IMG/VR virus record: IMGVR_UViG_3300017971_000213 | Span: 1 to 64,000 of that record | Reading direction: 5' to 3' (one strand) | Origin: an uncultured virus (IMG/VR IMGVR_UViG_3300017971_000213) | Lineage: Duplodnaviria; Heunggongvirae; Uroviricota; Caudoviricetes | Length of the DNA: 64,000 nucleotides | The notes under the pieces: generated by a model | What the model was told of the DNA's origin: nothing | Databases searched by the model: none | The model's input: the letters and a program-made list of their open reading frames with translations, nothing else | In this document: piece after piece, positions 33,779-52,705 of the stretch | How the letters are laid out: each line of letters opens with the position of its first letter | Numbering within the stretch: position 1 is the first letter of the stretch | Translations under genes and position numbers: made by a program

Positions 33779-34275
33779 GGCACCGCCGATGCTGCTTCCA
33801 TCATGGCCCAGTAATGAGCGTCATCGACAGACTCTACTAGGGCCACGAGTTCGTTCTTGATACCCTCCCAGTACTGAAGAAGCACTTCCAGCTCGTCCGT
33901 GAAGGATACCACGTTCTTGTACCGTTCCCTCCAGACCGTGAGCGCAGACGTTGCGGTGTCGAACAGCAACAGCGCAGGGTCGGTGATCATCTGGTAGAAC
34001 TCCGGGCACAGTTCTTTCAAAGGGCCGTCCGGTATGTTCGTCAACGCGTCCCTGACCTGATCAATGATCGTCTGGACAATCGCCCACGCAGCCTCCTCCA
34101 GAGCCTTCAAGATGTCGAACTGCGCCAACCAAGCCACGAGCCACTGAATCTGTAGATCGATGTACTCGATGATGGCCAACAAGATGGCCTTCAGCGCCTC
34201 AAGCAGAGGAGCCACCTGTGCGTAGAGCCATCTCAAGATGCACAACGCGATAGTCCCTGCGCCTGTTAGAGCCAT
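33775..34275 (-). CDS. hypothetical helical protein in the baseplate cluster
   Basis: 166-aa amphipathic helical ORF between the spike and gp25-like genes. Confidence 0.6.
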   Translation of the reverse strand: MALTGAGTIALCILRWLYAQVAPLLEALKAILLAIIEYIDLQIQWLVAWLAQFDILKALEEAAWAIVQTIIDQVRDALTNIPDGPLKELCPEFYQMITDPALLLFDTATSALTVWRERYKNVVSFTDELEVLLQYWEGIKNELVALVESVDDAHYWAMMEAASAVP

Positions 34276-35805: not shown

Positions 35806-38316
35806 CTAACCCTTCGCGTTCTCTGACAAAAGCCTCGCGTAGTTGAACGGCGTCTCTCCTCCGAAATGCTGAAAGTCCTCTAGCTTAGGGGAAGTCCCTT
35901 CCTTGTAGACGCCTTTCCACCCCCTAGCCAGATTAACGTTAACCGTCGTATCGCAAGCGCTGTTGACGACCATGCTGTGCTGACAACTAACGATATTCGC
36001 CACGTAGTTCCTCTGCCTCCAGTACAACGGACGGTTCACCATGAGTCCAAAATGAGGGAGAGTCTGTAACCCGATATTACGAGCCTCCGCATTCGTCTTC
36101 CTTAGCTCCACCGCAGCAAAAAGACGGGCAGCCTCTTCAGAAGTGACCTCCGTCCAAGGACCTTTATCAGCTGCGGGGCGTACACCAAGCAGAGGAACAA
36201 GGCCGTGGGCTGCCGCCCACTGAAAGCGCCGAGAGTTGATGTCGTTGGCCTCTTCAACACGAGCGATGTTGTTCGGAGCTATTCGAGCCAACGTCTTGAG
36301 ACCGTTATCGTTCAGCGAACTGCTGAAACCGAAGGTTTCGTGACGGTTAATAGTAAAGTAGTCAGAATAGTTAAAATTCTGCGCGTTGTAGGAACCACCG
36401 AACCCCTCCAACGTGAGCTGAAGATCCGAAGACAGCTCCATCATCTCCAAAATATCAGACTCCGTGTAGTCCCCGCTCGCAGCAGACCACTCCGACACCC
36501 ATTCACGAAGCGGCTTCTCCCCTTCCTTTCGCAAACCCTGCAAACCTGCACGACCTTCGATCTCCGCATTCGTGATATGGGAGTCCTCTCCATCGAACAT
36601 CCAAGGATCGAAATCGTAGAAAGGCATCTCGAAAACAAGGTCCCCCCTACCTGTGGAGTAAAAACAGAACTGAATCTGCTCCGCCAAATCGTAAATGTAG
36701 GTAAGACGGTCACGAAAATCGGAATGGAGATCCCCCTGAGCCCCACTAACCATCTCGTTCATTACGCCTGCGGAGAGACCGAGACCCAGACGCGTCGGGG
36801 CCACGTAAAACACACGACCACCCCCTACTGGATAGGTGTCTATGTCCGACCCAATGATGCTGACAACGTCCACCACGCCGAGACCGTCAGAATTAGGGGC
36901 GGAGGTCTCGTCGGCAGCCATATCGGTTAGATCGTCAACACGAACCCGACTGTGCAACATGTCGTTGAGCTGACGCAGATTCCCCATCGTGATCGGACTT
37001 CCTGTGGCCTTCTCTAAACCGTCTAGCTCGGCGTCCCCGATGTAATATGCGTACACCCCCTTGGACTCTTCTTTGCGCTTAAACGTTACCCCGTGAGGAG
37101 CATACACCGGAGGGAAGAAGGACCCCTGGAACCTACTCTGCTTAGCGCCAATCAGGTACTCTTCCAAGGATGACCGCCGTTGAGTATCGGTCATCTTGTT
37201 GATTTCATCCAAACTCTTATAAACACCGTGCTTCTGAAGGAAGACCTGCACCTCTGAGTCACTGAAAGCCTCTACAGCCCGATTGGTCAACTCAGTCATG
37301 ACCCCCTCGTAGGCTTCCTTACCGAAGAAGAGCATCTCCAGAATCTCGTACGCAGTAAAATGAGCAAATAGCTCCTGATACGCAACCCAGTTCAACGCGG
37401 CTACGTCGCCCGCACCCTCGAACGCAGGATCAAACTTGAAGATCTCCTGAATGCTCTTGTCGAGCCCAGCGTCTACGTTGAGCTGGAAATAAGAGTACCG
37501 AAGTGTTTTACTGACGTCAGTCCCTACGATAGTAACCGTGGACTCCTGATTCACCCCAACGTCTTCGGTGAAACCGTCTACAAAGCCGGAAAACATCCAG
37601 TACCATATGGTCGGGACAAAAGGATCGCGAAACGCAATTCTTATAGGATCGTTCGGATGGAAGATGCAGTCACCTTCAGTAAAAGGGTACGTGTATATGT
37701 AATCTTCCAAAAAAATAGGAAACGCGTCCCAATCCTCTCCCAAGGCGTCTATGACCTTCTGAGACTCCGGGGCATACTGCGTGGCCTTCTTTTCCACTAC
37801 CGTCTTCTTTATGGAATCGGGGACAGAACCCTCCTCCCAGTTCTCCTGGAACCAACCCGAGGCAGCTCTCAACTCGTCATTGAATGCGCTAACCACGTCC
37901 ACAAAAGACTGCCCCACCTGCTCATTGGCGAATGCCCCAAAAAAAGCCTCTAGTACATCTACGTCCTCCCCCGCTTCGTCGCGAAAGTACTGCTGCAACC
38001 CTGCGAAGAGGGTAACGTTGTCTTTAAGGTAGTTGACAAGCTGTTCCCGGCTGTCGCTAAGCGCAACCATATCGGTATGATCGATGATGTATTTGTCCAA
38101 CGGGTTATGCAGAGTGATTGAACACGTAGAAGGAGCGCGATCCATGCTGCCCCCGGATTGGTTGACACGCACGTCTATAACGTCCCCCGACACCTCCTGC
38201 CCGTAAATGAAAACACGGAACGCCGGAAAAGCGGCGCGGTAGATGCCTTCTTGAGACGAGAGGACCGACTGCTCCGTCCAGAGTTTTTCACCCAGTTTAC
38301 CCAGTTCAACCATCAC
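35806..38316 (-). CDS. baseplate hub protein (gp27/gpD-like) with large insertions
   Basis: FRVFIYGQEV...CSITLHN, FSGFVD, GTDVSK, FYSTGRGDLVFEMP, and a C-terminal NIVSCQHSM...DTTVNV. Confidence 0.7.
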   Translation of the reverse strand: MMVELGKLGEKLWTEQSVLSSQEGIYRAAFPAFRVFIYGQEVSGDVIDVRVNQSGGSMDRAPSTCSITLHNPLDKYIIDHTDMVALSDSREQLVNYLKDNVTLFAGLQQYFRDEAGEDVDVLEAFFGAFANEQVGQSFVDVVSAFNDELRAASGWFQENWEEGSVPDSIKKTVVEKKATQYAPESQKVIDALGEDWDAFPIFLEDYIYTYPFTEGDCIFHPNDPIRIAFRDPFVPTIWYWMFSGFVDGFTEDVGVNQESTVTIVGTDVSKTLRYSYFQLNVDAGLDKSIQEIFKFDPAFEGAGDVAALNWVAYQELFAHFTAYEILEMLFFGKEAYEGVMTELTNRAVEAFSDSEVQVFLQKHGVYKSLDEINKMTDTQRRSSLEEYLIGAKQSRFQGSFFPPVYAPHGVTFKRKEESKGVYAYYIGDAELDGLEKATGSPITMGNLRQLNDMLHSRVRVDDLTDMAADETSAPNSDGLGVVDVVSIIGSDIDTYPVGGGRVFYVAPTRLGLGLSAGVMNEMVSGAQGDLHSDFRDRLTYIYDLAEQIQFCFYSTGRGDLVFEMPFYDFDPWMFDGEDSHITNAEIEGRAGLQGLRKEGEKPLREWVSEWSAASGDYTESDILEMMELSSDLQLTLEGFGGSYNAQNFNYSDYFTINRHETFGFSSSLNDNGLKTLARIAPNNIARVEEANDINSRRFQWAAAHGLVPLLGVRPAADKGPWTEVTSEEAARLFAAVELRKTNAEARNIGLQTLPHFGLMVNRPLYWRQRNYVANIVSCQHSMVVNSACDTTVNVNLARGWKGVYKEGTSPKLEDFQHFGGETPFNYARLLSENAKG

Positions 38317-39065
38317 ACCAACTCGTTAAAAAACTCAGTCCCCAGCGTGAGGGAAATGTACCTAAAAATGTCATCCATTGAAGGAATCGTTTCTGTCGCC
38401 ACGAAAGAAAAAGAGTACGTCTTGCTGAAAGGGTTAGCCGCGTCGTCGGTAAACTCCAGCACACGGTCAAAATGACCGATGAACTGAATCAACGCATTGG
38501 CCAACATAGGGCTACTGTACATGAAATAAAAACGATTAGGGTACCCCCCGAACGGATCAATAACAGGCTCCCGCGTGAGGCTGTACAGGTTCCAGAAGTT
38601 CACGAGCTTCGAAGCACCTTGCAACGCCTCGATATCAAGCCCCTCCTGGTTCGTGACCGACTTCACCCAGTCCCGGAACTTCTTGATATTCTCAGAGAGA
38701 TACTTGCTGTTGCGCTGCATCCCAGTACGGATGTTGATGTTCCCCGTCGCCCCAGCAAAACTGATGTTGATGACGTCGTTGTTGCGACCCTTCGCGTTCG
38801 TCCAGTGATAGAACACAGCACCGGACTGCGTATCTCGCCTCGTAATCCTCTTGTTCTGCGAAAAGGTCACAGTCTCCGGATTCATCTTCATGCGCACAGG
38901 ATCAATGCCGTTGTTCATACGTTGATCCGAAGTGAACATAAAAGGAACTCGATACGCAACATCCTCGTAGGGGTTGAGTATCCGATCAAGAATACGTTCT
39001 GTAGAAGGTGTAGGAGTCGTCTCCCCACCAAACGTATTACGCAAATTTTCCAAAAATGTCGCCAT
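38313..39065 (-). CDS. tail tube initiator / baseplate tube-like protein
   Basis: MKMNPETVTFS...TQSG...ISFAGATG...GHF...FTDDAANPFSKTYSFSF; position after the tape measure genes. Confidence 0.7.
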   Translation of the reverse strand: MATFLENLRNTFGGETTPTPSTERILDRILNPYEDVAYRVPFMFTSDQRMNNGIDPVRMKMNPETVTFSQNKRITRRDTQSGAVFYHWTNAKGRNNDVINISFAGATGNINIRTGMQRNSKYLSENIKKFRDWVKSVTNQEGLDIEALQGASKLVNFWNLYSLTREPVIDPFGGYPNRFYFMYSSPMLANALIQFIGHFDRVLEFTDDAANPFSKTYSFSFVATETIPSMDDIFRYISLTLGTEFFNELV

Positions 39066-39073
39066 TACCTACC

Positions 39074-41869
39074 TCAGCCCGGAGCGAGCCCCAGCGCAGC
39101 AAGCTGGTTAGCCTGCTCCCCTTGGCGCTTCTTGGTTCGCTCTCGATGTTGCTTTCCGGTTGCCCATTCACGCGCCTCGCGACCAGCAGCGGTATCAGCT
39201 CCTGGCCTCCAGAAGAGGGCACGCTCGTAGTTCCGTCCTCCAGAAGGAATGGAACCTAAGAGACCCCCACCCCTCATGAACGGCGGAAGTCCCTCGCCCT
39301 CGTTGGCGTGAATGAACCCCGTCGCACCCTTCGTCCAGTCCTGTGTCCCGGAATCACCTCTCAAGATGCTGCGCGCGAAATCAATCGTAGCCTGCGAGGG
39401 GCGACGGCGCGTAGCGTACTGGCGGTTGTACCGCTTATTGTTGTTCTGCTTCCCCCACCCCTTACCGGAAGTGGCCTTGTTCTTGAGAGCACCCCCACCC
39501 CTGCCCTTGGCACGATTGATCAGAGTGTGCGCGATACCTACCAGCTCCTTCTTGCGCGCAGGACTGTACCCTCCAGCTTCGCTCTGAAGGACACGAGCCA
39601 GCGCCTCCACGTCGTCCCCGGTGTACTTGCCCTCACTGGCAAGAGCCATACTGCTGAACTCTCCCTCCAGCTCCGCTTCCTCGGAAGCGAAGGAAAGCCC
39701 ACAACGAGGGCAGTTGCCGCCGATCTCGAATGAAATGTTGCCCTGGGTGTCTACACCGCCCACTTCGAGAGTGACTCCGCCTCCAGCCCACGGGCCGTCC
39801 CATTCCGACTGCGCAGCCTGAGGGTCCTTCTTTACCGAAGCAGGTGCCTTCGCCATCTGCTTGGGAGCCATCGAAGATTGACCCGACTGGAGCGATGCCA
39901 CGGGGATCTGCACCACTTGAGACGGAGCGAACGCGTTGCCCGCACCCCGACCCTTGGTACCCGGCATCGATCTGAGTCGAGAAGACGCAGGATCGAAGTT
40001 CCAGGCCTCCTGGAGGGTCTTCATCGAGGTCCCCAGGACGTCAGAACCCATGCGCTTCATCGCCTTTGTCATCTGGGACAGACCCCGGTTCATCTTGCGC
40101 TTGTGCTCTTCCGTGTTCCCGAACAAGGCGTTGATGTCAGCCGCCAACCGATTATTGTCCTGCTGATCGCCGCTGATGCCGTTCACAATGAACTCAGGGA
40201 GGGCCTTGAAGAACGCAATCAGCCACGACACGGCCTGGATGACCATGCCCATGATACCCTGCCCTACCTTGGCCAGTCCCTTCATCCACGAGTTCATCGT
40301 GCGCTCGAATTTGCTGCGCTTGGTGGCCTCCACGCCAAACGACTTGGACAGGATCTCGGAATTCTGCTTGGCCGCCGTGGCTGCCTCTACGGTCTTCCCC
40401 TCCTTCATCTTGGAACCGATCTCGGCTATCAGACGGGCACCCTCAAACCCGAGACCCATCTGCTTCTCCATGTAGAACCGCGCGGTCTCCTCGTCCCCTC
40501 CAGTGGCCTCCATGGCGATGTCGTAGACGGCCTCGACGATTCGCGTGACTTCTCCACTGTTGTTGCCCTCGGCAACACGGCGGAATGCGTCCATCATCTT
40601 CTGCCGTGCTTCGAGTCCTCGACCGTAGCCGAGCCGTTCCCCGAGAATGATCTTCCAGGAATCCGACATCTTGGCGATCCCAGACGCCATCTGCTGTATC
40701 CCCATCGCGGCCTGCTTTCCCGCGAACTGCTTGGGAACACCCATCTTGGAGAACTGCTCCGTAACGTGCGAGTAGATGTCCACGACGTTATCGATGTCGT
40801 ACCCCATCTTGGCCAGCTCCTTGCCAGCATCCTCCACGTTCTTCACGTACTGCATCGCACCGATACCGGAATCCCGACCCACCATGTACATCCGGGTCAA
40901 GGACTCCCTGGCCTCGTCAGTGGTCTTGCCGTAGTCGGCCATCAGGCCCACCATCCGCTTAGCGCTCTCCCCACCTCCCAGCTCGAACATCTTGTCCAGA
41001 GCCAGAGTCACCGTGACGGCACTGCTGTGGACGCCCTTGAGCCGCGTATCGACAGTCCGCGTCATCTGATCGACGCTGACACCGCCGTCGACAAAAGCCT
41101 GGGCAACCGACTGAATCTGTTCCCGGTTGATCCCCATGTACTGCTGCAACGACTCCTGGATCGAGGACAGGTGACGAGTTCCAGAACGTACAGCCCCCTT
41201 CACCCCGTCATCGTAGGCGGCGATGAGGATGTTCTTCATCTCCCCGGCCTGGGCACGAACCCTGTCGCGGTCCATGTAGCCGTGGATCATGATGCCGATA
41301 CCACCCGCTGCAAGGGCCTTCCACTTCGGCACCTTGAGCTTCTGCATCATGCCGCCGATCTTACCCTTCAGCGTCCTCCACTCTGACCGAACCACCTGCT
41401 TGGACTTGTTGGCCGCCCAAGCACGCGCACCGCTCTTCTTACGGCCCTTGCTGTCACGCCCCTTAGCGCCTCCTCCGCCGTCCTCGGCGTCCACCTGACC
41501 CGCAACAGCGTCTGCCTTGTCTACAAGCCCCCTTGCGCCCGCTGAGAGGCTCTCAAAGTCCTTCTCGGCGGCCTTGACCGTCTTCTCCAGCTCGTCGAAG
41601 GACTTACCCATGCTCCCCGCGAGCTTCTCGAACTTCTGAGAAACCCCCTGGACGTACTCCTGCCCCATACCGGTCAGCTTCGACCCCTCCTTGAGGGTGG
41701 GATCGTTCTCCAGATCCGAGAACACGGTCTTGAAGCTGTCGCGTAGAGACGCACCGAGCGCATCGATCATCTCAGTGTTGCGCTGAGATACCTCACTGAT
41801 GGCGTCACCGAGTTCGGTGAACTTGAACCGAGCAGCATCGAGATGCTGTATGTCAACGATATCGGTCAT
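39074..41869 (-). CDS. tape-measure-like protein 3 with C-terminal SleB-like cell wall hydrolase domain
   Basis: Helical Ala/Gly/Met-rich core homologous to the two upstream genes. DVEALARVLQSEAGG...VGIAHTLINR...DWTKGATGF is the SleB/Hydrolase_2 pattern. Confidence 0.8.
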   Translation of the reverse strand: MTDIVDIQHLDAARFKFTELGDAISEVSQRNTEMIDALGASLRDSFKTVFSDLENDPTLKEGSKLTGMGQEYVQGVSQKFEKLAGSMGKSFDELEKTVKAAEKDFESLSAGARGLVDKADAVAGQVDAEDGGGGAKGRDSKGRKKSGARAWAANKSKQVVRSEWRTLKGKIGGMMQKLKVPKWKALAAGGIGIMIHGYMDRDRVRAQAGEMKNILIAAYDDGVKGAVRSGTRHLSSIQESLQQYMGINREQIQSVAQAFVDGGVSVDQMTRTVDTRLKGVHSSAVTVTLALDKMFELGGGESAKRMVGLMADYGKTTDEARESLTRMYMVGRDSGIGAMQYVKNVEDAGKELAKMGYDIDNVVDIYSHVTEQFSKMGVPKQFAGKQAAMGIQQMASGIAKMSDSWKIILGERLGYGRGLEARQKMMDAFRRVAEGNNSGEVTRIVEAVYDIAMEATGGDEETARFYMEKQMGLGFEGARLIAEIGSKMKEGKTVEAATAAKQNSEILSKSFGVEATKRSKFERTMNSWMKGLAKVGQGIMGMVIQAVSWLIAFFKALPEFIVNGISGDQQDNNRLAADINALFGNTEEHKRKMNRGLSQMTKAMKRMGSDVLGTSMKTLQEAWNFDPASSRLRSMPGTKGRGAGNAFAPSQVVQIPVASLQSGQSSMAPKQMAKAPASVKKDPQAAQSEWDGPWAGGGVTLEVGGVDTQGNISFEIGGNCPRCGLSFASEEAELEGEFSSMALASEGKYTGDDVEALARVLQSEAGGYSPARKKELVGIAHTLINRAKGRGGGALKNKATSGKGWGKQNNNKRYNRQYATRRRPSQATIDFARSILRGDSGTQDWTKGATGFIHANEGEGLPPFMRGGGLLGSIPSGGRNYERALFWRPGADTAAGREAREWATGKQHRERTKKRQGEQANQLAALGLAPG

Positions 41870-44175
41870 CGTGCGCCCATCCGGGTAGAGCTATTCTGAG
41901 AAACCCGTTTCCTCGATTCTATCAGAGAAGATGTCGTTCCTTTTTTACCCACAGCGGGTTTTGAAATACCGTCAGAAGACTCACTCACGTTGGAGTTCAT
42001 CGTGCGGTCCTTGGCACGAGCCTCCCTGCGAACCTTCTGCGGAGAGCGGCGTCTAGACTTTCTACCAGCCTGCGGTTTGTCTGCGGAGGAGACTGCCTTC
42101 TGGACCTTCCCTCGACGTTCCGTCTGATCAGGAACCGCCGCGTCCAGCTCCACGTCGGCGTCCGTATCGACATCGAGATCGTAGTCTCCGCTAGACAGAA
42201 TATCCGGGTCTTCGTCGATCAGGTCCTCCCGAACCCTTTCCTCGTCAACGTCCATACCCCCACCGTACCCAGGAGCCATCGGAGCCTCTACCGGGGCTTG
42301 ATCACGCAAAACATCCAAGAGAGGGCCAAACGTCTCCCGAAACTCACCACCCAAGGCCTGTCCGGCGATCTCGAAACCACCGATGAGCTTCTCCCAGCTA
42401 CCGGCCATCGTGTTGAAGACCTTGTTCTGCTGAGCGTAGATGCGGTGATACACCTCTTGACGCTCAGAAACAGGAGTCAAGAGAATCTGAGCCTCCCCTT
42501 TGAGGCCGACCATCAACACCGAGACCAGGTCCACCAGGATCGCCAGGATCGCCTCACCGATACGCGCCATCCCGCGAATCAGCTCTCTCCGAGTACGGTG
42601 CAAAGAGGAGACACGCTCGCTCTCCGTCTGGAAAGCCTTGCGAAGCTCTTTTCGCTCTTTCTCGGACAGGTCCTCCAGCTTGCCACCCTCAGCTAGCTTC
42701 TCCCCCGCGTCCCAAACCAACTGAGCAGTCCGGTTCTTGACGTTCAGAAGCTTCGAAGTGGCGTAGATCCCCCGACTCCGCGACGTAGAGGTCTTGGACT
42801 TCAGAGTACGTACGGTGGAACGGATGAGATTCTCCAAAAACTGGTCATCATCCCCCTTAGAGATGCGGCGCAGACCGTCGTCGAACCTCAGCATCAACGA
42901 AACCGCATCCGCCTCCTGGTCCTGGTACATGTCCCTAGCAAGAACGATCTTGAGCTGATCGTCCAGCTTCGTAAACGACGTCATCAGATCGGCTACAACA
43001 CCTTCGGCCTGCTTCCCCGCGTACCTCTCGGACAACCCATGCGCGGAGTAGAAATCGATCACCTTCCCCGCGAAAACAGCAGCCGTCTCCGCCTGTACGC
43101 CCATTCGCGAAAGAGGATCAGCAGCAGACATAACGATGCGCGTGAAGTTACGAACACCGATAGCGCTCCGAGCACCGGCAGCGGTCAACCGAGTGTAGAA
43201 CCCCGCAGCGTCATCCAACTTCATCCCGTAGTCGCGAACGAGACTCGTGATGTCCCCCATGGCCTCCGCCGTGGCGAAGTTGAAGTGCTTCCCTATACCC
43301 AGCGCCAGGGTGACGACGTTCTTCCCCACCTTCCCCAACCCATCATCAAAGGTCTTCAACATGTCAGAAGCGCGGAAGCCATTGTCGACCATCAACTTCA
43401 CCGCGCCCTGGGTTTCTTTCCGACCCACACCCCATTGCCACTGGGCACGCTCACCCCAGTTGGCAAACCACCGAGTGGCTCTCCGGGAACTCGCTGAGAA
43501 CAGCGAGTCCACACTACCCTCGAAGAGGTTGGCCATCTCGGACATCTCAGCACGCCGACGGTCACGCTCTGTGTACCCGAGAACCATCGCCCCGATGAGA
43601 CCACCGACAAAACCCGTAGCCACTCCCCCTGGAATCTTGCGCAGAACGCTCTGTAGCTGTTTCTTGACCGAAGCTGCCTCTTTGCCAACAAACTTCGCAA
43701 GACGTGATTGCCGCTCTTCGGCCTCATCAGTGGCGCTGTCTGCCTCCTGGGCCACCTTCTCGGTCGACTTCAGGGCCTCCTCGGCATCGTTCTTAGCCCC
43801 TGCCGTATCCGGGACCGGCGGAAGAGGTTGCGTCTTCTCGGGGGCTTCCCCTCGGGGGTCCTCGTTACCGAGAAAGTTTTCGATCTTCAACGACCGGAGC
43901 TTGTCGAGAGCGCTGCTCATGGTGCGCTCCTGTCGGTCGTACGCGCTGAGGCTGCTCTCAATCTTGGACACCGAGGCATCCGTCATGGGAAGAATCAACG
44001 GAGGAGGATCACCCACTGAACCGGAACCCAACGTGATGTCGTCCGATGCACGCATAACGCGCGCTGAAAGCATCTGAATCGTGTTCCCCAGCTCAGTGTA
44101 TGCTCGCGTGGTACCCTCTAGCTGAGAACTCAGCCAAGGGAGATCAACTACGAGCCGTGGAATACCGTCGGTCAT
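41866..44175 (-). CDS. tape-measure-like protein 2
   Basis: 769 aa helical; clear paralog of 44172-46544 (IPGG...GGL..AMV.GY.ERDR...ETQ...MVD.G...GKNV). Confidence 0.7.
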   Translation of the reverse strand: MTDGIPRLVVDLPWLSSQLEGTTRAYTELGNTIQMLSARVMRASDDITLGSGSVGDPPPLILPMTDASVSKIESSLSAYDRQERTMSSALDKLRSLKIENFLGNEDPRGEAPEKTQPLPPVPDTAGAKNDAEEALKSTEKVAQEADSATDEAEERQSRLAKFVGKEAASVKKQLQSVLRKIPGGVATGFVGGLIGAMVLGYTERDRRRAEMSEMANLFEGSVDSLFSASSRRATRWFANWGERAQWQWGVGRKETQGAVKLMVDNGFRASDMLKTFDDGLGKVGKNVVTLALGIGKHFNFATAEAMGDITSLVRDYGMKLDDAAGFYTRLTAAGARSAIGVRNFTRIVMSAADPLSRMGVQAETAAVFAGKVIDFYSAHGLSERYAGKQAEGVVADLMTSFTKLDDQLKIVLARDMYQDQEADAVSLMLRFDDGLRRISKGDDDQFLENLIRSTVRTLKSKTSTSRSRGIYATSKLLNVKNRTAQLVWDAGEKLAEGGKLEDLSEKERKELRKAFQTESERVSSLHRTRRELIRGMARIGEAILAILVDLVSVLMVGLKGEAQILLTPVSERQEVYHRIYAQQNKVFNTMAGSWEKLIGGFEIAGQALGGEFRETFGPLLDVLRDQAPVEAPMAPGYGGGMDVDEERVREDLIDEDPDILSSGDYDLDVDTDADVELDAAVPDQTERRGKVQKAVSSADKPQAGRKSRRRSPQKVRREARAKDRTMNSNVSESSDGISKPAVGKKGTTSSLIESRKRVSQNSSTRMGAR

Positions 44176-46544
44176 TCGCTGTTCGGCCTCTTGAGGATAT
44201 TCTTCTGGGCTTCCTGGTTGGCAGTCCCGGCGTCACCGGCACTGAGCACCGTCTTGCCTTTGCTGGCACCCACCTGCTGGTCCACCTGGGAGCGCTTCTT
44301 CTGTCTCTTGTAAGCACGGCGTATACGAGCCAACTCTTTCTTCTGCAAATGCCCCTCTACGGCGCTCGCCCTCTCTTCCAGTGCCTGAGTGCGCCTACTC
44401 CACTTCTGGAAGTCTTCGCTCGGTGCCTCGCCTTCTTCAGGAGCGTGCATGAGCTTCATCATCTCCGACGCCCACGCAGCGTTCTTCAAGAAGTCGACCG
44501 TCATCTGGTCCTTGACCTGACGACGAAAGTCCTCGTCCCCCGCCAGGTCACTAAAAACACTCCCTAGCTCCTTGGCAGCCGCATCCGCATCCTCCAGAGA
44601 GGTAATAGGCCTCATGCCGCCGCCCGTAGGAACCTTGTAGTTCAGTGCGTCCAAAAGGGGCTTGAAGTCCCGTCCGAACTCCTTACCCAAGATGCCGGGA
44701 ACCATACCCGCGCCCTTCATGATCTGGTCCACACCGGTACCCATGTGCGCGTTCAGCGTGTCGAGTTGATCACTGATGCGACTCAGCTCGGTCTGCACCT
44801 GACCGGGGCTACCTGAAACCGCAGCGGAAACGATATCCGGGAGCGCACGGATACCTGTCACGATAACCCCTAGCAGCCCCACGAGAACCTTGATCAAGCC
44901 GCGACCGATCTCACCTATCGCACGGTAGAGACGACGCTGCGTCTTGTGCAACGATGATACCCGCTGACTCTCCGTCATGAAGGCACGACGCAGGTGCTTC
45001 GTCTCATCCTTCGACAGCTCGGACAAATCGTTGGTCCGCGCGAGCTTCTCCCCCAGATCGTACAACGTCGCCGCCGTACGGTTATCCATACCCTGGTACT
45101 CCATGACACGGATGGATTGAGCACGACTACGACCACCGCGACTGGACCACTGAGTGAAAAGCACCAACGCCTTCTGCATGAAGTCGTCGCCCCCACCCTC
45201 AGCAACACGAAGAAAACCGTCCTCCCACTTCTGGAGGGCGTCCAGCGCGTTCAGCTCAGGGAACATCTGCTGCGCCAGAACAGCCTTCATGCTCGGGTTG
45301 AGGTTCGCGAGACCTGCGGACATGCCACCGATGACCTGCGAGGCCTGATTGCCCGCGTATCGGGGATCGAGCCCCATGTCCTCGTAGTGCTTCCGGATGG
45401 TCTCCATGACGGACGCAACGTTGGACACGTCAACGCCGTACTGCTGCATCGCGGAGGAGCCTGAGATGACAGAATCGACGAACCTACCGATACCCATCGC
45501 GCTACGCTGCCCCGCGAAAGCCAGCTTGACGTACTTGTCCGTAGCGGTATCGAGAGAATCACCAAGCTCAGTAGTGATCTTGATGATGTTGCTCATGGAG
45601 GTACCGGTCTTCTGGTTGAAGTGCTTGTCCACGGCGATGGACGCAACAGTCACGTTCTTGCCAACAAGACCCAAGTCTTTGTTGTACGTGGTCATGAAGT
45701 CCTTCGACCGGTACCCAGCGTCAACCATGCTCTTCAGTACAGCCTGCGTTTCCTCCTTGGCCACCCCGTAGAACCACTGCGCGGTCTCTTGGAACCCAGA
45801 GAAGAACCGAGTAGCTCGCTTCGATGCTTTCGAAGAAAGCGCCTCTCCGGTAGCTTCGAAGACATTCAGAATCTCTCCCGATTGCCACCGAAGACGGTCC
45901 CTCTCCTGATACCCCATGACCATCGCAGCCAGGAGACCCCCAGCGATGCCCCCGGCAGTCATAACGCCGCCAGGAACATGACTGAGCACGCTCTTGACCT
46001 GACCCTTGGCGGCGTCCAGCTCAGACTTCAAGTACCGCTTAGCGCGGTTGATAACCATCACCGAGGCCTTATCGGCCTCCTGAATCTTCTTGATCGACTC
46101 CAAAGCCGCATGCTTGACCTCGTCGGAGGACATGCTGGCCAGGCGAACGCTCTCCTTGACGATTTCCGCCTTGGCCTCCGCTGCGCTGAGCTGAGGAGGT
46201 GTGGGGTCCTTGGTAGCGGCCCCCATCTTGACCCCCGACAGGCGAGTCATGTCGTTAGCGATCTTCTCGCTATGACGTGACATCTCTTCGAGGAGGTTGG
46301 ACGTAGAGCCTACCCCGGACTCCATGATCTGGACCGACCGCTCCATCTGCGGAGTGATCGAAGAGAGACTGACATTGACCGACGCCGCCTGCTCCTGGAG
46401 AGAGACCAGCTCTTCGTCCGTACGGGAAATGAGACCCTGAAGAGACCTGCCGAAATCCGTGTAGGTCCTCCGAACGTCGTCGATCTGAGCCTGGAACTTA
46501 TCCAGGTCGAATCGAAGCAGGTACTCTTCAGTGGTCGCCATCAA
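44172..46544 (-). CDS. tape-measure-like protein 1
   Basis: 790 aa helical, immediately after the G/GT chaperone pair, the canonical tape measure position. Confidence 0.75.
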   Translation of the reverse strand: MMATTEEYLLRFDLDKFQAQIDDVRRTYTDFGRSLQGLISRTDEELVSLQEQAASVNVSLSSITPQMERSVQIMESGVGSTSNLLEEMSRHSEKIANDMTRLSGVKMGAATKDPTPPQLSAAEAKAEIVKESVRLASMSSDEVKHAALESIKKIQEADKASVMVINRAKRYLKSELDAAKGQVKSVLSHVPGGVMTAGGIAGGLLAAMVMGYQERDRLRWQSGEILNVFEATGEALSSKASKRATRFFSGFQETAQWFYGVAKEETQAVLKSMVDAGYRSKDFMTTYNKDLGLVGKNVTVASIAVDKHFNQKTGTSMSNIIKITTELGDSLDTATDKYVKLAFAGQRSAMGIGRFVDSVISGSSAMQQYGVDVSNVASVMETIRKHYEDMGLDPRYAGNQASQVIGGMSAGLANLNPSMKAVLAQQMFPELNALDALQKWEDGFLRVAEGGGDDFMQKALVLFTQWSSRGGRSRAQSIRVMEYQGMDNRTAATLYDLGEKLARTNDLSELSKDETKHLRRAFMTESQRVSSLHKTQRRLYRAIGEIGRGLIKVLVGLLGVIVTGIRALPDIVSAAVSGSPGQVQTELSRISDQLDTLNAHMGTGVDQIMKGAGMVPGILGKEFGRDFKPLLDALNYKVPTGGGMRPITSLEDADAAAKELGSVFSDLAGDEDFRRQVKDQMTVDFLKNAAWASEMMKLMHAPEEGEAPSEDFQKWSRRTQALEERASAVEGHLQKKELARIRRAYKRQKKRSQVDQQVGASKGKTVLSAGDAGTANQEAQKNILKRPNSE

Positions 46545-47374
46545 TCACTCTCCACGATCACAGTCGGCCTGTCGAGGCTCGGTTCTGCCTCCACGGACTT
46601 GTCCGATGTGACTTGGACCGACACCAAATCAACGTGCTCCACAATGTGCTGCTGAGAATGCTCGCGCTTCATGTCATGCCGGGCTTGACCGATAGTGCGC
46701 GCAGCGACATCCGACAGGGAGTTTTCCTCGATGTCGTCTTTGTTGAGAACCAGAGACTCCAGAAGGGCCTGGTTGTCCCGACCACCCCAGGACATCATCC
46801 GTTGCAGCTCCTCAGGGGTGCTGTCGCACTCGACGTCGCCGTCGTCCTCCATGAAGGCTTCCAGCTCGTCGGGGGTCATCTCCACGACACCGGTATCGAC
46901 GGGGCGACCGTCGTCACCAACCTGGCCCGATGCAGCGAGCTGACCCGCCACCTCCTGCTGGGTATGGAGCTGTTCGGTACGGTCTTTGATCATCGAGAGG
47001 ACGTCATCACGCCCAGTCATCACAGAAAGTGGCATGATCTCGTCAGGAGTAGGCATCCGAAGCAACCCCGTCTCCTCGTCCTCCACCGGACACAGGTTGA
47101 GGCCCAACATGCTCACCACCTGGTCTTTCACTATGTCCGCCATCAGCTCGATGTCCTTGTACCGATCCAAGTCCTCCTTGTTCATCGCCTCAAGCTCAAA
47201 CACCCACTGGGTATCGTTCATCCCCTTGATACGGGGGTCCCCGATGGGGATCTGTCGCTTCGTCAAGACCTTGGCCTTGATCCGAAGGCGAGAAGCTATT
47301 CGTCGCCAGACGGGGAAGACTCGGTCCCAGTGGGCTTCTCGCCCTCTTCCGAACCCTCCCCGGAGGATTTTTTT
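46541..47374 (-). CDS. tail assembly chaperone GT extension (reached by -1 frameshift)
   Basis: The -1 frame is open from the A-AAA-AAA site (47374-47368): AKKILRGGFGR...RLRIKAKVLTKRQIPIGDPRIKGMNDTQW to the stop at 46541. Confidence 0.75.
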   Translation of the reverse strand, partial: KKILRGGFGRGREAHWDRVFPVWRRIASRLRIKAKVLTKRQIPIGDPRIKGMNDTQWVFELEAMNKEDLDRYKDIELMADIVKDQVVSMLGLNLCPVEDEETGLLRMPTPDEIMPLSVMTGRDDVLSMIKDRTEQLHTQQEVAGQLAASGQVGDDGRPVDTGVVEMTPDELEAFMEDDGDVECDSTPEELQRMMSWGGRDNQALLESLVLNKDDIEENSLSDVAARTIGQARHDMKREHSQQHIVEHVDLVSVQVTSDKSVEAEPSLDRPTVIVESD

Positions 47375-47832
47375 GCTGCGTCCTGGGCGTCCTCCCTACG
47401 CTGTTCGAGAGACTCCCAGAAACCCCACATCTCCTCCAGACGCTCCGGAGGACGCTCCGCCAGGTACTGCATCAGGTACTCGGCCGCGAAGTACTTCTGA
47501 TTGTAACGCCCCCGACCATCGACGAGCTGCACGATCTGACGTCCCTCCTCGGTGCTCTCCCACTCCTCGCGGAAGAACTCGAAGACAGGAATTCCGTTGA
47601 TGGCGCGAATGCCGATGGACAGTGTGGGCAACCTCCAGGAAGAAACCGTCGAGATGCGCGACCCGGTGTTGATGAACGAGTTACGCCAGTTCGACTCTTC
47701 CTCCGTCAGCAGACGTATCGTCCACTCACGGCCCATCCACAGGAAAGTATCCTCGATGGTCTCGCCATCGAGTTCCCGAGCAAGGTCCAGCAACATCTTT
47801 TTGGGACTTTGATTGTCGTTTGAAGGCAACAC
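47296..47832 (-). CDS. tail assembly chaperone G
   Basis: GTG start after a GGAGGAGG SD; lies between the tube and tape measure genes; slippery site near the 3' end. Confidence 0.75.
   Translation of the reverse strand: MLPSNDNQSPKKMLLDLARELDGETIEDTFLWMGREWTIRLLTEEESNWRNSFINTGSRISTVSSWRLPTLSIGIRAINGIPVFEFFREEWESTEEGRQIVQLVDGRGRYNQKYFAAEYLMQYLAERPPERLEEMWGFWESLEQRREDAQDAAKKSSGEGSEEGEKPTGTESSPSGDE
47368..47374 (-). other. programmed -1 ribosomal frameshift slippery heptamer A AAA AAA
   Basis: Minus strand GCA AAA AAA TCC in the G frame, a correct X XXY YYZ phase. Confidence 0.75.
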
Positions 47833-47891
47833 GGCTTTCGCTCCTCCTCCCGCTACGCGGGGTCTAATTGTGAGTCGCTTTCGCGACAAAC

Positions 47892-48497
47892 CTACAACAG
47901 AGGTCTCACCTTGGTGTAGACCATCGTTGCGTTGACTGAGACGATACGGTCTCCTTGCGCTTGCATGTTCCGACCCAGACTGGTGAACCAGCAACCCGAG
48001 TACCAGAGCTTCTCCACGCTCACTTCCATCCCCTGAGGGACGGCCCCGGTGTCGATACCATCGAGGTCGTTCTCGGTCCCGATACCCAGTGCACCCCCGA
48101 CCTTAGTGTTGCCGAGAGTGTTGAGCATGCTGTCGCTGACCGACTGAAGCCACGGGGTGAACGGGGAGTCGTCCTTCTTCCCGTACCTGACCCATTTCTC
48201 CTCAACGTCGAACGGGTTGTGCTGGTCGGTGAGCATGTAGAGTGCCTTGTCGGTCCCCCAGATCTCCTCCATCTTCTTCGTGAAGAGATCGTACCTCGCC
48301 ACCTGAACGGTCTGGGAAGACGAGATGCCGGCAACGTGCTCGATGGGCGCCCCGAGACCGACAGCGTTGATCTCGTACTTCGGCTTGACGTCCCTCGCCT
48401 GGGAAGGAGCCCACGTCTGGATATGTCCGATGGTCTTCCCGCCCGCTCTGATAGAGATCGCATGGCTAGTGCGTACTTGCGTGACGGGTACTGGCAT
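47892..48497 (-). CDS. tail tube protein paralog 2 (with about 50-aa insertion)
   Basis: Closely similar to the adjacent tube gene at both ends (RTSHAISI.AGG..IG.IQTWAP.Q.R and GCWF...GRNMQAQGDRIV.VNAT). Confidence 0.8.
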   Translation of the reverse strand: MPVPVTQVRTSHAISIRAGGKTIGHIQTWAPSQARDVKPKYEINAVGLGAPIEHVAGISSSQTVQVARYDLFTKKMEEIWGTDKALYMLTDQHNPFDVEEKWVRYGKKDDSPFTPWLQSVSDSMLNTLGNTKVGGALGIGTENDLDGIDTGAVPQGMEVSVEKLWYSGCWFTSLGRNMQAQGDRIVSVNATMVYTKVRPLL

Positions 48498-48504
48498 GTG
48501 AGGC

Positions 48505-48951
48505 CTAGAGCGGTCGGATCTTGACGTAGTTGAGGGTCGCGTTGACCATCACGATACGGTCGCCCTGAGCTTGCATGTTGCGACCGATCTGCGAGAACCA
48601 GCAACCCTCGTAGTGGTAGAACTCGGTAGCGCCGTCCGGGTTTCTCCACTTCTCGCGCAGCTCCAAGGGATTGAGCTGGTCGGACAGCATCCAGAGAGCC
48701 TTCGCCGTACCCCAGACCTCCTCCATCTTGGAAGCAAAGAGGTCGTAACGCGCCACCTGGACGGTCAGGCCGGTGATGTTCCCCGGAACGTTCTCCGTCA
48801 CCTCACCACTCGTCTCCGACCGCAACTCGTACGTTGGCGTTATGGTACGAGACTGGTTGGGCGCCCACGTCTGGATCTGCCCAATGGGCACCCCTCCTGC
48901 CAGGATCGATATTGCATGGCTGGTGCGGATGTTTGTCTGCGGAACTGGCAT
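48505..48951 (-). CDS. tail tube protein
   Basis: 148 aa directly after the sheath gene; YEGCWFS motif common in contractile-tail tube proteins. Confidence 0.85.
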   Translation of the reverse strand: MPVPQTNIRTSHAISILAGGVPIGQIQTWAPNQSRTITPTYELRSETSGEVTENVPGNITGLTVQVARYDLFASKMEEVWGTAKALWMLSDQLNPLELREKWRNPDGATEFYHYEGCWFSQIGRNMQAQGDRIVMVNATLNYVKIRPL

Positions 48952-48974: not shown

Positions 48975-51476
48975 CTACGCTGCCACGCTGAAGAAGGGGT
49001 TGTCGACGGAGAACTCACCGAAGAACCGCTTGGCCGGGTACTTCAGGTTGTACCAGTACTTGAAGTAGAACGTCCTCGGATCGGTCGAGGACTGGTACAC
49101 CTGGATGTCCGTGGTGGCGTCGATGTCCCTCGGGAGACCGGAAGAATCGCGGTAAGCCGCGATGGAACCGTTGTTGATGTTCGCCAGGATACCGAGCAGA
49201 ATCCACTTCTTGCAGTCTGTGATGAAGTCCGCGAGGTCGTCCGGAACGATACCCACAACGTTGCTCGTGAGCAACGTATCGACAGTCTTGGTGACAGCGT
49301 CCTTCTGCGCACTCGCTGAAGGCTCCTCGAACTGCACCACCTTGCCCCCGCCGGCCTCGGTGGTGAGAGGATCGAGCATGACGAAGCGACCTGCGTCGTA
49401 GGTGACTACGAGGACACCTTTGTCCGCCAGAGCGTGCCGCTCCCCGCGCAGGTAGGTCCCGAAACCGTCAGCGGTGAAGCCGGTGATCTGGAGACCGATG
49501 AGCGCCGACGAGGGACTCGGGAGACCCGCATAGATGGACGCCACCGCCGCCGCGATGTAGGTCCCGTCTAGATCGACGTTGACCTCCTGTCCCGTATCCA
49601 GGGTGAGGGTACGGGTAGCGTTCGGCGGAGCGATAAGGTGCATGCGCCCGCGCCCCGGAGAGTTGTTGCCCGGCTGGAGCGTCTGGGTGGACGCGAAGAT
49701 CAAGGTCCCCGGCGTATCGGGATCACCGACGTCGGTGTCCCTGGCCATGCCGAACCAGCCGCGACGATAGTGCTTCTCCAGCATCGACGACTCGCTGGAC
49801 ACATGGTTCATCTGGTAAACCATCGTCTCCAGCGCCGTATCGAGGGTCAACACTTCGGTGATGTTGACGTACTCCTTGGCCACGTCGATAGCAGAGTTGA
49901 TCTGGGTCTGCGTGGGAGAACCCGGCACCGTGGCATCGTTGACCTGGACCAAGTAGAGCGAAGACGCTCCGTTCTCGAAAGCAATCTCACCTGCGATACA
50001 CAGATGGTTGCGGATGTAGTTGCTCAGGTTGAGCTGCGTCGTATACGCGTAGAGCTGGTCGACATCGAAGACCCGGTGAGCGGTGGAGTAGTCCGTGGAA
50101 GGCCGGGTGTAGTCGTAAGTGCTGTAGAAGGAGGTCCCGTAAGCGGGACGCTGTCCGGTCCCGTTCACGATGTAGGGCTGCGTGATGTTGCCGAAGATGG
50201 TCGTGAAGGCGTCGGTGGCGTTCGACAGGAACATGATCGAGGACGCGGCGCCCTTCTCGGCCGGCGTGTTCTCGAACGCATCCGGAGCTGTCAGCACCAC
50301 CGTGTTGCCCAACACCTGCGCCACATGGCTGAACTCGGGACCGTAGGCGGTAGCGATGCTGTTCAGTGCCGTGTTGATGTCATCCGCCACCGTGGTCACG
50401 TTGGTCGGAGCGCCTGGGGTTAGCGTAACCGCCACCTGGGTGAGACCGTTGATCTGGATGAGCAACTGGTCGTTCACGCCGGCCACAATCGTCGGAGGAG
50501 ACGCAACGAAGTCAACCGAAGTCACCGTAGCCTGCGACCACGAAGTGGTGTCCCAATCAAGATCGTTGGAAGCACCATTCTCGTAATCGTAGTTCTTGAT
50601 GTAGTCGATACCGCCCGGATACGAACCCACGCTGACAATGTCGGACAGCGGCGTCGAAGTGCCGGCTCCGGACAGAGCGTCTGTGAGCGTCTCGATTGAG
50701 ATGTACTCGATGGTGTAGGTGGCGGCGGAGTTGTAAGCGGCGTCAGCAACCGTGATGGACGTCGCGGCCTGCACCCCACCCGAAGCCGCCGGAACCCACG
50801 CAGCGTTTGAAATGATGGACGCGGCGTCTTCTTCCATCGACAGGAAGACCTTCACGTCACTGGCAGACTCCGTCGAGGGAGACGTGAGAGTGATGTACTT
50901 CTGCGTCACACCAGCGACCGCCGCTGCCACCGCAGAGTATGCAGCACCGTAAGTGCTGTAGTAGGTCCCCAAGGGATTACCCAACTCGTAGTTGACGTAT
51001 GCCGCGACCTCGTCCGCAGTCGCCGTAGCAGGGGCCGCGATGATGCCAACCGGGGCAACACCGAAATCGATGGTCACCGCGCGCTTCCCATCGAGAGACA
51101 CGGTGAAGTTGTGAGTACCGCCAGCGGTGGATACGTCCACCGTGGCAGCGCCCCACTCCGAGCCGGTCAAGACCGCCGGGTTGAACGACCAATCTCCGAG
51201 ACCCAGCTCGTTGTCGTTCATATACAGGACGGCCTCGTTGCGGGATCTGTTCGAAGCGTTCGACAGAGTAGCCGTATGAGGGCTAGAAGACGCCACGGTC
51301 AAGGTCTCGTCGTACACCTTTCCGCGAACGATCTCCTCGTCGACGCTACGACGAGTCCGGGGCGCAATCCCGACCAGAGCGAGCGTTCTCTCGGACGTCA
51401 CCGAAACGGAACCCGGAGTGATTACCTCCGAGATATATACGCCAGGGTCAACGTATCGTGAAATCGAGATTGCCAT
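48975..51476 (-). CDS. contractile tail sheath protein
   Basis: N-terminal YVDPGVYISE, ALVG, AFENGAS, LADKGVLVV, and a C-terminal FYFKYWYNLKYPAK. Confidence 0.9.
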   Translation of the reverse strand: MAISISRYVDPGVYISEVITPGSVSVTSERTLALVGIAPRTRRSVDEEIVRGKVYDETLTVASSSPHTATLSNASNRSRNEAVLYMNDNELGLGDWSFNPAVLTGSEWGAATVDVSTAGGTHNFTVSLDGKRAVTIDFGVAPVGIIAAPATATADEVAAYVNYELGNPLGTYYSTYGAAYSAVAAAVAGVTQKYITLTSPSTESASDVKVFLSMEEDAASIISNAAWVPAASGGVQAATSITVADAAYNSAATYTIEYISIETLTDALSGAGTSTPLSDIVSVGSYPGGIDYIKNYDYENGASNDLDWDTTSWSQATVTSVDFVASPPTIVAGVNDQLLIQINGLTQVAVTLTPGAPTNVTTVADDINTALNSIATAYGPEFSHVAQVLGNTVVLTAPDAFENTPAEKGAASSIMFLSNATDAFTTIFGNITQPYIVNGTGQRPAYGTSFYSTYDYTRPSTDYSTAHRVFDVDQLYAYTTQLNLSNYIRNHLCIAGEIAFENGASSLYLVQVNDATVPGSPTQTQINSAIDVAKEYVNITEVLTLDTALETMVYQMNHVSSESSMLEKHYRRGWFGMARDTDVGDPDTPGTLIFASTQTLQPGNNSPGRGRMHLIAPPNATRTLTLDTGQEVNVDLDGTYIAAAVASIYAGLPSPSSALIGLQITGFTADGFGTYLRGERHALADKGVLVVTYDAGRFVMLDPLTTEAGGGKVVQFEEPSASAQKDAVTKTVDTLLTSNVVGIVPDDLADFITDCKKWILLGILANINNGSIAAYRDSSGLPRDIDATTDIQVYQSSTDPRTFYFKYWYNLKYPAKRFFGEFSVDNPFFSVAA

Positions 51477-51547: not shown

Positions 51548-52705
51548 TCAACCTATCTTCAAGTAATTGGCACCGAAATAGTCCCCTTGGGGCAGCTCCT
51601 CGGTACTCACCAGATCCGTCTCGCGGATAAAGGTGTACTCGCCTCTGTTGAAGGGCCGATCCACGAAGTCCGCCGTCACCACAGGCACGCTACCCCGGAT
51701 GGAGTGGATAAACGCCTGCTGCTCTCCGCCCTGTCGGGGTACGTTGTACTCGCCAGCCCAGGTGAATTCTCTCTTCAAGATGATCTGGAACCACTCCGGA
51801 GGGCTCAACTCGGGGTCGTCGTATGAACGCCCGAGCATCTGGAAGAACTGACGTGACATGTAAAAAGTGAAAAAATCGTACACCAGATCGGCCAAAGCCG
51901 TACGGGTGTTCAAGCTGTCCGCGACCACATCGATGTTGATGGTGAGATCGGCAGCCACGGCATACCTACGATACGGAGGGTTGACCTCGTAGTCGAGGTA
52001 CGTGACGTACTGACCGGTCTTGTACCCCAACGCCAACAAGCAATCAGGGGTACCTCCGATGACCTCCATAGCGTTCGGAGTTCCGTGAGCGGCAGGTCCC
52101 CCGCTGACGATCTGAAGCTGTCCGGTACCGTTCTTCTGCGCGTGAGTATACAGGACCTGGGCGTTGATGGCTTGGATGACATCGTCCACCGTAGCGCTGT
52201 GGATATCCGGGAACAGGATGTCCTCGAACAGAATCACAGTATCCACAGGATCGTTGTCCAGCCCGAGAGGCCACGTACGGATATGAAGCTCCCACCCCGG
52301 TGAGAGGTCGTAAGGACCCCCATTCTCAGCGGTCAGGCGAGGAAGAGTCTGATTCGTCACCGCGTGAACATCACCAAGACCCAACGCCTTCTCTTTGGCG
52401 TTGGCAGACGTAATCACCACCATCGGAAACTTGTCCGGAGTGTCCCCAAAGCTCATGATGAAGTTCATCACGGTCTCCATGGACTGCGTGGTGTTGTTGG
52501 TTCCCATGTGAGCGAACTTCTCGATGGCCGGGAACTCTCCGATCTTAGCCCGGATGTCATCCGAACGGTAATCGAAGAAACGACGAATCTCGGACGCGAA
52601 GGCGTCCTTGGTCGTCTCGATCAGCTGACCAAACCTGGGCGGATCGTCAGGATCGAACGGCTGCGTGGGTCGGTACTCGCGCGGCCCTGAGAAGTCATCA
52701 ACCAT
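51548..52705 (-). CDS. tail terminator / neck protein
   Basis: Position before the sheath gene; FPMVVIT...LTINIDVVADS...RTALADLV pattern of tail terminators, with an inserted domain. Confidence 0.6.
   Translation of the reverse strand: MVDDFSGPREYRPTQPFDPDDPPRFGQLIETTKDAFASEIRRFFDYRSDDIRAKIGEFPAIEKFAHMGTNNTTQSMETVMNFIMSFGDTPDKFPMVVITSANAKEKALGLGDVHAVTNQTLPRLTAENGGPYDLSPGWELHIRTWPLGLDNDPVDTVILFEDILFPDIHSATVDDVIQAINAQVLYTHAQKNGTGQLQIVSGGPAAHGTPNAMEVIGGTPDCLLALGYKTGQYVTYLDYEVNPPYRRYAVAADLTINIDVVADSLNTRTALADLVYDFFTFYMSRQFFQMLGRSYDDPELSPPEWFQIILKREFTWAGEYNVPRQGGEQQAFIHSIRGSVPVVTADFVDRPFNRGEYTFIRETDLVSTEELPQGDYFGANYLKIG

Follow-up and report, generated by a model that had tools for sequence, protein, structure and literature searches.

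We analysed a 64,000-nucleotide stretch of DNA from an uncultured tailed phage (IMG/VR record IMGVR_UViG_3300017971_000213, positions 1 to 64,000; hereafter the window), which is part of a 129-kb virus record. On its minus strand lie three consecutive genes, here called A, B and C, that are paralogous to one another, occupy the place of the tape measure gene in a single contractile-tail module, and probably act together in one tail. The tape measure gene is normally present once, and its product determines the length of the tail and aids DNA injection. Their positions are as follows.

44172..46544, minus strand: tape-measure paralogue A, 790 aa; TTG start with ATG as the next codon; no enzyme domain
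41866..44175, minus strand: tape-measure paralogue B, 769 aa; sister of A; no enzyme domain
39074..41869, minus strand: tape-measure paralogue C, 931 aa; the same body, followed by a beta-hairpin, a CxxC motif and a hydrolase domain

Paralogy, identity and enzyme domain of A, B and C

An earlier note, made from the DNA sequence of the window alone, had described three coupled open reading frames with a colinear common core. The coordinates confirm the coupling, as all three genes share 4 nt with their preceding neighbour, and the motifs that the note had quoted for the core are present in the translations. Pairwise alignment gave 33% identity between A and B (650 columns, E 1e-102), 23% between A and C (589 columns, E 1e-43), and 25% between B and C (431 columns, E 2e-43). 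In each protein, the homology extends from a common N-terminal motif to approximately residue 630, indicating that each is a complete copy rather than a fragment of a single gene. A split tape measure gene was rejected as an explanation since A, B and C cover an identical span rather than different parts.

The A protein consists of an N-terminal coiled coil, a hydrophobic helix (residues 192-210), a helical globular domain (approximately 201-526), and a further hydrophobic helix (550-568). The corresponding hydrophobic helices of B are at 181-199 and 539-557, and by hydropathy those of A and B are stronger than those of C. AlphaFold2 models of A and C are long and almost entirely alpha-helical, with a coiled coil, a hydrophobic helix, a confidently predicted helical globular domain, a second hydrophobic helix and a hairpin. 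At their C-termini the three proteins do not resemble one another, and conservation of this region within each type is weak.

The assignment of all three as tape measure proteins, which the earlier note had proposed, is supported by their slot, by the neighbouring chaperone, by a profile match to phage G and by the neighbours found in fold searches. The genes lie after the tube genes and a frameshift-type G/GT chaperone gene and before the probable initiator and hub genes. A profile of the family core matched gp183 of phage G once, at 34.6 bits over residues 1185-1400, while control searches with 200 shuffles and 2 reversals gave at most 3.8 bits. The available text on phage G identifies gp183 as the virion tape measure (PMC8570332). 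We considered gp183 as a fusion of three cores and rejected this because the core match is single. The same profile matched the single gene in the same slot of the Rctr197k genome at 132 bits. When the models of A and C were searched against BFVD, each returned 101 matches at E<=0.001, and those carrying a name were mostly tape measure or minor tail proteins. Among direct matches, B hit the tape measure family PHROG 1272 (E 0.009) as well as TMP_3 (E 0.005) and PhageMin_Tail (E 0.009) of Pfam, both Pfam matches falling under the cut-off. Profiles A1 and A2, when searched against PDB sequences, found mainly generic coiled coils; a weak match to FtbJ (9j1k; E 0.003 and 0.04) was not counted. Neither B nor P0073 had a tblastn match in 50,697 phage records. 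Bacterial and archaeal genomes scanned with the C profile gave 115 pattern matches, none of which was confirmed, and so provided no clue to a prophage or host.

Beyond the common body, C carries the following features.

39200..39634, minus strand: SleB-like (Hydrolase_2, PF07486) domain of C, assigned by transitive homology
39578-39580, minus strand: putative catalytic Glu764 of C, from aligned tails
39701..39790, minus strand: conserved beta-hairpin and CxxC motif (C720, C723) of C, from the alignment; strands at 699-706 and 712-719 in the model

The C-terminal domain of C is a putative SleB-like cell wall hydrolase. It had no Pfam or PDB match of its own, and a 17-row profile of it likewise found nothing in PDB. 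However, the tail of C is homologous to that of its orthologue L055 (BLAST E 2e-14), and both L055 and the orthologue L026 pass the Pfam cut-off for Hydrolase_2; of 39 C-type rows, 6 match this family at E<=0.01. The label that the earlier note had given to the domain is thus retained by way of the orthologues and not by a direct match. Glu764 is invariant in 17/17 aligned tails, a count that is not independent because the rows were chosen by a motif that includes this residue; we take the end of the first helix to be the expected place of the catalytic Glu in SleB/Hydrolase_2 enzymes. Language-model neighbours of the domain include Hydrolase_2 at 0.87-0.89, which we used as a lead only. Both cysteines of the CxxC motif are invariant in 42/42 rows of alignment A8, and together with the hairpin they may serve in metal binding or in anchoring to the baseplate. 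The type of enzyme on the last copy varies among orthologues, being SleB-like, M15, M23 or CHAP.

Copy number and duplication history in related phages

A homologue search of 1.84 billion representatives yielded 273 proteins at E<=0.001, and the listing gave 150 of them. We compared loci obtained by pattern scans whose seeds were multi-copy members, and the counts given here therefore under-represent single-copy phages. The first 72 loci contained 152 full-length members, which formed 31 groups at 95% identity. After six groups had been dropped for a truncated slot (L008, L057, L058, L065, L067 and L070), there remained nine three-copy phages, one of them seen over two overlapping partial loci, along with 15 two-copy phages and one single-copy phage. 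Thirteen further loci added three three-copy, two two-copy and one single-copy phage, as well as one repeat. The survey of synteny that the earlier note had called for therefore covers 31 phages with a whole slot: two have one copy, 17 have two, 12 have three, and none has four. Whole-record searches of 10 records gave the same copy numbers as the loci, with no extra copy. One of the records searched whole, G001, is a complete genome of 192 kb with terminal repeats that encodes the same proteins as the window at 100% identity, and it holds exactly three family members. The picture of three copies in the earlier note thus holds for the window, but it had overlooked a sister clade with only two copies and an enzyme that can be swapped.

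All 29 multi-copy sets contain one copy with a hydrolase, whereas neither of the two single-copy proteins has a hydrolase domain. In the window's clade, this is the last copy in 25/25 cases (24 whole-slot phages and L058), with a SleB-like, M23 or M15 enzyme, compared with 0/37 of the other tails. The observation in the earlier note that only the third copy carries the hydrolase is thereby extended to its relatives. Pfam enzyme matches alone were obtained for 19 of 39 C-type proteins and for none of 51 A/B-type proteins. Outside this clade, 5/5 multi-copy sets also have one enzyme copy, two of these matches being under the Pfam cut-off. Three of these sets belong to a second three-copy lineage (L074:6605-14534, L075:6872-14895 and L085:9428-17219), in which the order is copy 1, initiator, copy 2, copy 3, hub, and copy 3 has a glucosaminidase or SLT domain. 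All three copies in this lineage end in a beta-strand-like segment. A different two-copy type (L081:7068-12064 and L083:7095-12070) has its M23-bearing copy first and its enzyme-free copy second, and it is sister to the single-copy phages in the neighbour-gene tree.

In trees of the window's clade, the proteins fall into a last-gene clade of C type and a first-gene clade of the two-copy phages, and A and B are sisters within the latter. Support for the A-B pair was 98 in a quick tree by the Shimodaira-Hasegawa-like approximate likelihood ratio test and 96/94 in a careful tree. This position indicates that one further duplication of the enzyme-free gene gave rise to B. The nine three-copy phages group together by C (support 99), and by their neighbouring genes they are sister to the two-copy phages (7 and 11 phages in that tree, respectively). 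In the second three-copy lineage it is copies 2 and 3 that are sisters (99/97). Approximately unbiased (AU) tests (LG+G4, 22/32 rows) rejected a grouping of B with copy 2 of that lineage (p 4e-6) and of C with its enzyme copy, copy 3 (p 0.009). Two of the family trees, the one that gave the A-B value of 98 and one used in the analysis of the second lineage, are quick trees. Given these rejections, the other gene order, and the separate places of the two three-copy lineages on the neighbour-gene tree, the step to three copies was taken twice, independently.

B is kept intact in 9/9 three-copy phages at 29-50% identity and is the fastest-evolving of the three. For most pairs the synonymous substitution rate (dS) is saturated; a single pair gave a usable value, and there the ratio of the nonsynonymous to the synonymous rate (dN/dS) of B is approximately 0.2. 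Strain variants are 15 synonymous and 3 nonsynonymous in B, and 14 synonymous and 7 nonsynonymous in A. A, B and C are all maintained by purifying selection. All 39 listed strain variants, from runs X4 and X5, lie within 42647-44436, in B and the 3' end of A, and none lies in C; this cluster is possibly a recombined segment of the population.

The length of the helical body between fixed landmarks is closely matched among the copies of the nine phages, at 596+-3 residues in A, 588+-6 in B, and 592+-5 in C. The genes are also tightly joined, with 37/37 junctions between copies falling within -8 to +11 nt (two of the loci being one phage). When loci L012 and L013 were compared, identity was 95% for the sheath, 64% for GT, 47% for A, 40% for B, 55% for C and 56% for the hub, as if the block from GT to the hub had been swapped as a unit, in one event only. 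In the wider comparison of L012/L024 with L013/L031, the sheath and the gene preceding it are at 95%, GT to hub at 40-64%, and the initiator at 79%.

The surrounding tail module

The genes of the module are ordered capsid, neck genes, sheath, two tube genes, chaperone G/GT, A, B, C, probable initiator, hub, spike, gp25-like gene and baseplate J. We assign the probable roles of initiator, hub and spike from this gene order. The sheath, initiator, hub, spike and J genes are each present once in the 129-kb contig, which indicates one tail module. The canonical arrangement is one tape measure gene per tail module; here, there are three in a single module. The neighbouring features are as follows.

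48975..51476, minus strand: tail sheath, 833 aa; tblastn to Rctr197k_065 (40%) and to the phage G tail sheath gp178 (E 3e-9); single copy in the contig
48505..48951, minus strand: tail tube protein 1, 148 aa; PHROG 985 at E 2.7e-7 and position after the sheath; probable tube role
47892..48497, minus strand: tube paralogue 2, 201 aa; PHROG 985 at E 4.8e-6; 45% to tube 1
47296..47994, minus strand: tail assembly chaperone G, with the limits given by the ORF finder
47368..47374, minus strand: slippery heptamer A AAA AAA, in frame for a -1 shift giving the G-T fusion; putative frameshift site
46541..47266, minus strand: T part of the G-T chaperone in the -1 frame; T is in frame -1 relative to G in 24/25 loci
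38313..39065, minus strand: probable tube initiator, 250 aa, single copy; PHROG 1011 at E 0.001; conserved position, with the role suggested by gene order
35806..38316, minus strand: probable baseplate hub, 836 aa, single copy; conserved position and an Rctr197k homologue, with the role suggested by gene order

The true start of chaperone G is probably further in, as close relatives have 174-186 aa. In 24/25 loci, the stop codon of G comes after a -1 slippery heptamer that is in frame, the twenty-fifth locus being truncated; a slippery site of this kind is the usual mark of the gene preceding the tape measure in the available text of two sources (PMC3556154, PMC8570332). The earlier note had placed the trio after a G/GT chaperone, and the conserved heptamer agrees with this. 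A hairpin after the slippery site does fold, yet no better than shuffled sequences (z -0.57). By eye, an inverted repeat just past the site (47310-47362) looks conserved in many relatives.

Relatives have one, two or three tube-like genes (three in L076), and phages with two tape measure copies have one or two, so the numbers of tube and tape measure genes are not tied. Between the spike and gp25-like genes lies a gene for a 166-aa amphipathic helical protein (33775-34275) with a weak PHROG tape-measure match (E 0.002) and two cysteines that are invariant in 22/22 homologues. One of the genes in the neck region (52705-53421) encodes 238 aa and has a DUF5661 domain (E 4.6e-12), and an RRXRR / HNH-like gene (58818-59663) directly follows the major capsid gene, at the place where Bxz1 also has an HNH gene.

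One contig of run X3, which is possibly the source of this DNA, covers the whole window, and no joints, inversions or deletions were seen in 4/4 sequencing runs; no RNA run was listed as containing this DNA. On these grounds we rejected an assembly artefact as the origin of the trio.

Proposed arrangement of the three chains in the tail

The trio and the second three-copy lineage suggest a tail core built of different chains. We consider it probable that A, B and C are placed next to one another within the same tail and form a hetero-oligomer that serves as ruler and ejection channel, with 1:1:1 as the simplest ratio. The basis for this is the single tail module, the one chaperone locus, the coupling of the genes, the matched lengths, the retention of the copies, and the fact that a set of three with one enzyme was reached twice independently. 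A heteromeric ruler had been put forward in the earlier note. It is our best reading as well and gains comparative support from the series of one, two and three copies, the second route to three, the matched lengths and the single module, while co-assembly and stoichiometry are what we infer from sequence. The stop/start overlaps would yield A, B and C in roughly equal amounts, and the chaperone would keep the three chains stretched, side by side and in register, with their N-termini at the neck and their C-termini at the hub, in a hetero-oligomer of 1:1:1 or possibly 2:2:2. Such chains would set a tail of approximately one chain length, about 115-130 nm, if 1.56-1.7 A per residue (from phage G and diffocin figures) is applied to some 750 residues; laid end to end, they would give approximately 385 nm. 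Upon contraction of the tail, the chains would be ejected, the single hydrolase would open the peptidoglycan, and each chain would refold its pair of hydrophobic helices and its helical domain into a membrane conduit for DNA. As to history, the gene of a homo-oligomer may have duplicated into an enzyme-free and an enzyme-bearing chain (2:1 or 3:3), after which duplication of the enzyme-free gene may have given A and B. A narrower version, in which an obligate 1:1:1 heterotrimer with one hydrolase strand evolved at least twice by way of homotrimer and 2:1 stages and the number of copies is capped by the three strands in the tube, is offered tentatively, as its chances seem to us a little short of even.

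Several observations weigh against a side-by-side hetero-oligomer, or against the tape measure identity on which it builds. The two-copy phages, 17/31, cannot be 1:1:1 and would need 2:1 or 3:3; their bodies differ by about 27 residues (616+-7 versus 589+-10), and the fold of the common domain may account for much of the agreement in length between A, B and C. Known anchors are three-fold with identical C-termini, whereas those of A, B and C differ. The ceiling of three copies applies to this family and to a biased sample, and the family is known from genes of uncultured phages alone. In the trees, which have no root, monophyly of the three copies of the second lineage was 97 in one case and unresolved in another. 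Foldseek TM-scores were low (0.14-0.32 by query), direct tape-measure matches in Pfam and PHROG were all under the cut-off, a PDB fold search with the model of A gave 0 matches at E<=0.001, and the family profile had no match to Bxz1 gp129. Prediction of a complex of A (190-640) with C (176-630) gave run scores of 0.01, 0.33 and 0.01 against a mark of 0.32, which is no evidence either way.

A different division of roles is unlikely: one paralogue would form a homotrimeric ruler, and the others would be accessory ejection proteins housed elsewhere in the virion, in the head or baseplate, and would join or aid the DNA channel after injection. The stronger hydrophobic helices of A and B, the confinement of the CxxC motif and the enzyme to C, the differing C-termini, and the initiator gene between copy 1 and copies 2 and 3 of the second lineage would all suit such a division, as would the annotation of the twin genes of phage MarsHill as tape measure and tail lysin in the available text (10.1101/2020.12.14.422802). 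However, a protein packed in the head need not keep the N-terminal motif and the near-equal body length found in all copies, and all copies lie in the tail-assembly block and were exchanged along with the chaperone and hub. The earlier note had also raised the idea of alternative tails. Here each gene would make its own homo-oligomer, or the chains would mix at random, and the resulting kinds of virion would suit different hosts or conditions. Self-specificity can persist in paralogues of homo-oligomers, and the enzyme is swapped often among at least four families, like host-range parts. Nevertheless, we find this idea improbable and disfavour it. The 129-kb contig has a single gene each for sheath, initiator, hub and spike; neither joints nor an inversion or deletion were seen in the four runs; with translation coupled, there is little scope for switching; B is retained under purifying selection in 9/9 three-copy phages; and tails of A only or B only would be without an enzyme.

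The intactness of each gene, with its own N-terminal motif and core, makes it very improbable that the three proteins join end to end as the parts of a split giant tape measure in a tail of approximately 385 nm. We know of no mechanism for joining tape measures in this way, the core occurs once and not three times in phage G gp183, and the enzyme copy comes first in L081 and L083. What speaks for a serial ruler is that the sum of the three, 2490 aa, is near the 2893 aa of gp183, whose tail measures 450 nm in the available text (PMC8570332), and that the enzyme is on the last gene, as it is at the end of gp183. Finally, the copies could be redundant or decaying duplicates with no joint role, to which the rapid evolution of B might point. 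This is hardly credible, and is largely refuted by retention and selection: the genes are intact in 9/9 phages at 29-50% identity, and B has the low dN/dS in its one usable pair and the excess of synonymous over nonsynonymous variants (15 versus 3) described above.

The hetero-oligomer that we favour can be set beside known systems. The closest named genome, Rctr197k (KX853510; capsid 60%, sheath 40%), has the same gene order, a slippery site, and a family member in the same slot, Rctr197k_071 (669 aa), but it has one copy in which no hydrolase domain was found; it is unannotated and comes from an enrichment culture. The phage G module gp178-gp183 shares the order of sheath, two tube genes, G-T chaperone and tape measure, as well as C-terminal wall hydrolases. 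In contrast, gp183 is one gene of 2893 aa with the core once and enzymes on every chain. In mycobacteriophage Bxz1 (cluster C, gp124-gp137) the capsid is related (25%) and the module follows the same order; its tape measure, at 752 aa, is similar in size, but there is only one such gene, which the family profile does not detect. Tape measure proteins of diffocin (CD1366), JBD30 (gp46), Pa193 (gp41) and phi92 (gp134) are helical, with a predicted globular domain and transmembrane helices, and are thought to refold into a channel; Pa193 gp41 also has a putative transglycosylase domain. These differ in having one gene, three identical chains and three-fold C-terminal anchors. In the available text of the sources, the identical C-termini of such homotrimers bind a three-fold hub or spike, the chains in the lumen are proposed to refold into a channel after ejection, and trimers and hexamers are both discussed (PMC10996793, PMC11445458, PMC11456595, PMC13450770).

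Twin tape-measure-like genes have already been published for Staphylococcus jumbo phages. According to the accessible parts of the reports, MarsHill encodes two candidate tape measures, both of them helical proteins that have transmembrane segments, and one is annotated as a tail lysin (10.1101/2020.12.14.422802), and DC4 has adjacent genes of 1962 and 1990 aa (PMC10638138). They differ from the trio in having two copies that are approximately 2.5 times longer, and those parts propose no hetero-oligomer. Phrase searches, which miss other wordings, of a literature collection without most subscription journals found no heteromeric or three-gene tape measure, nor did one appear in the available portions of PMC13250141, PMC8718954, PMC8407745, PMC7824862 and PMC13252515. 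What the present analysis adds is the series from one to three copies, a second path to three that arose independently, the pattern of one enzyme per set, and the exchange of the block.

Whether tape measures are trimers or hexamers, and what form they take after ejection, is still argued. The series of one-, two- and three-gene phages gives each strand its own sequence, so that stoichiometry, register and the channel after ejection become directly readable. The family has no cultured member, and the twin genes of the Staphylococcus jumbo phages are the nearest bench system. If the proposed arrangement is true, this family would provide a clear phage example of a homo-oligomer that turned heteromeric twice independently, with labour split between ruler and channel chains and one enzyme chain.

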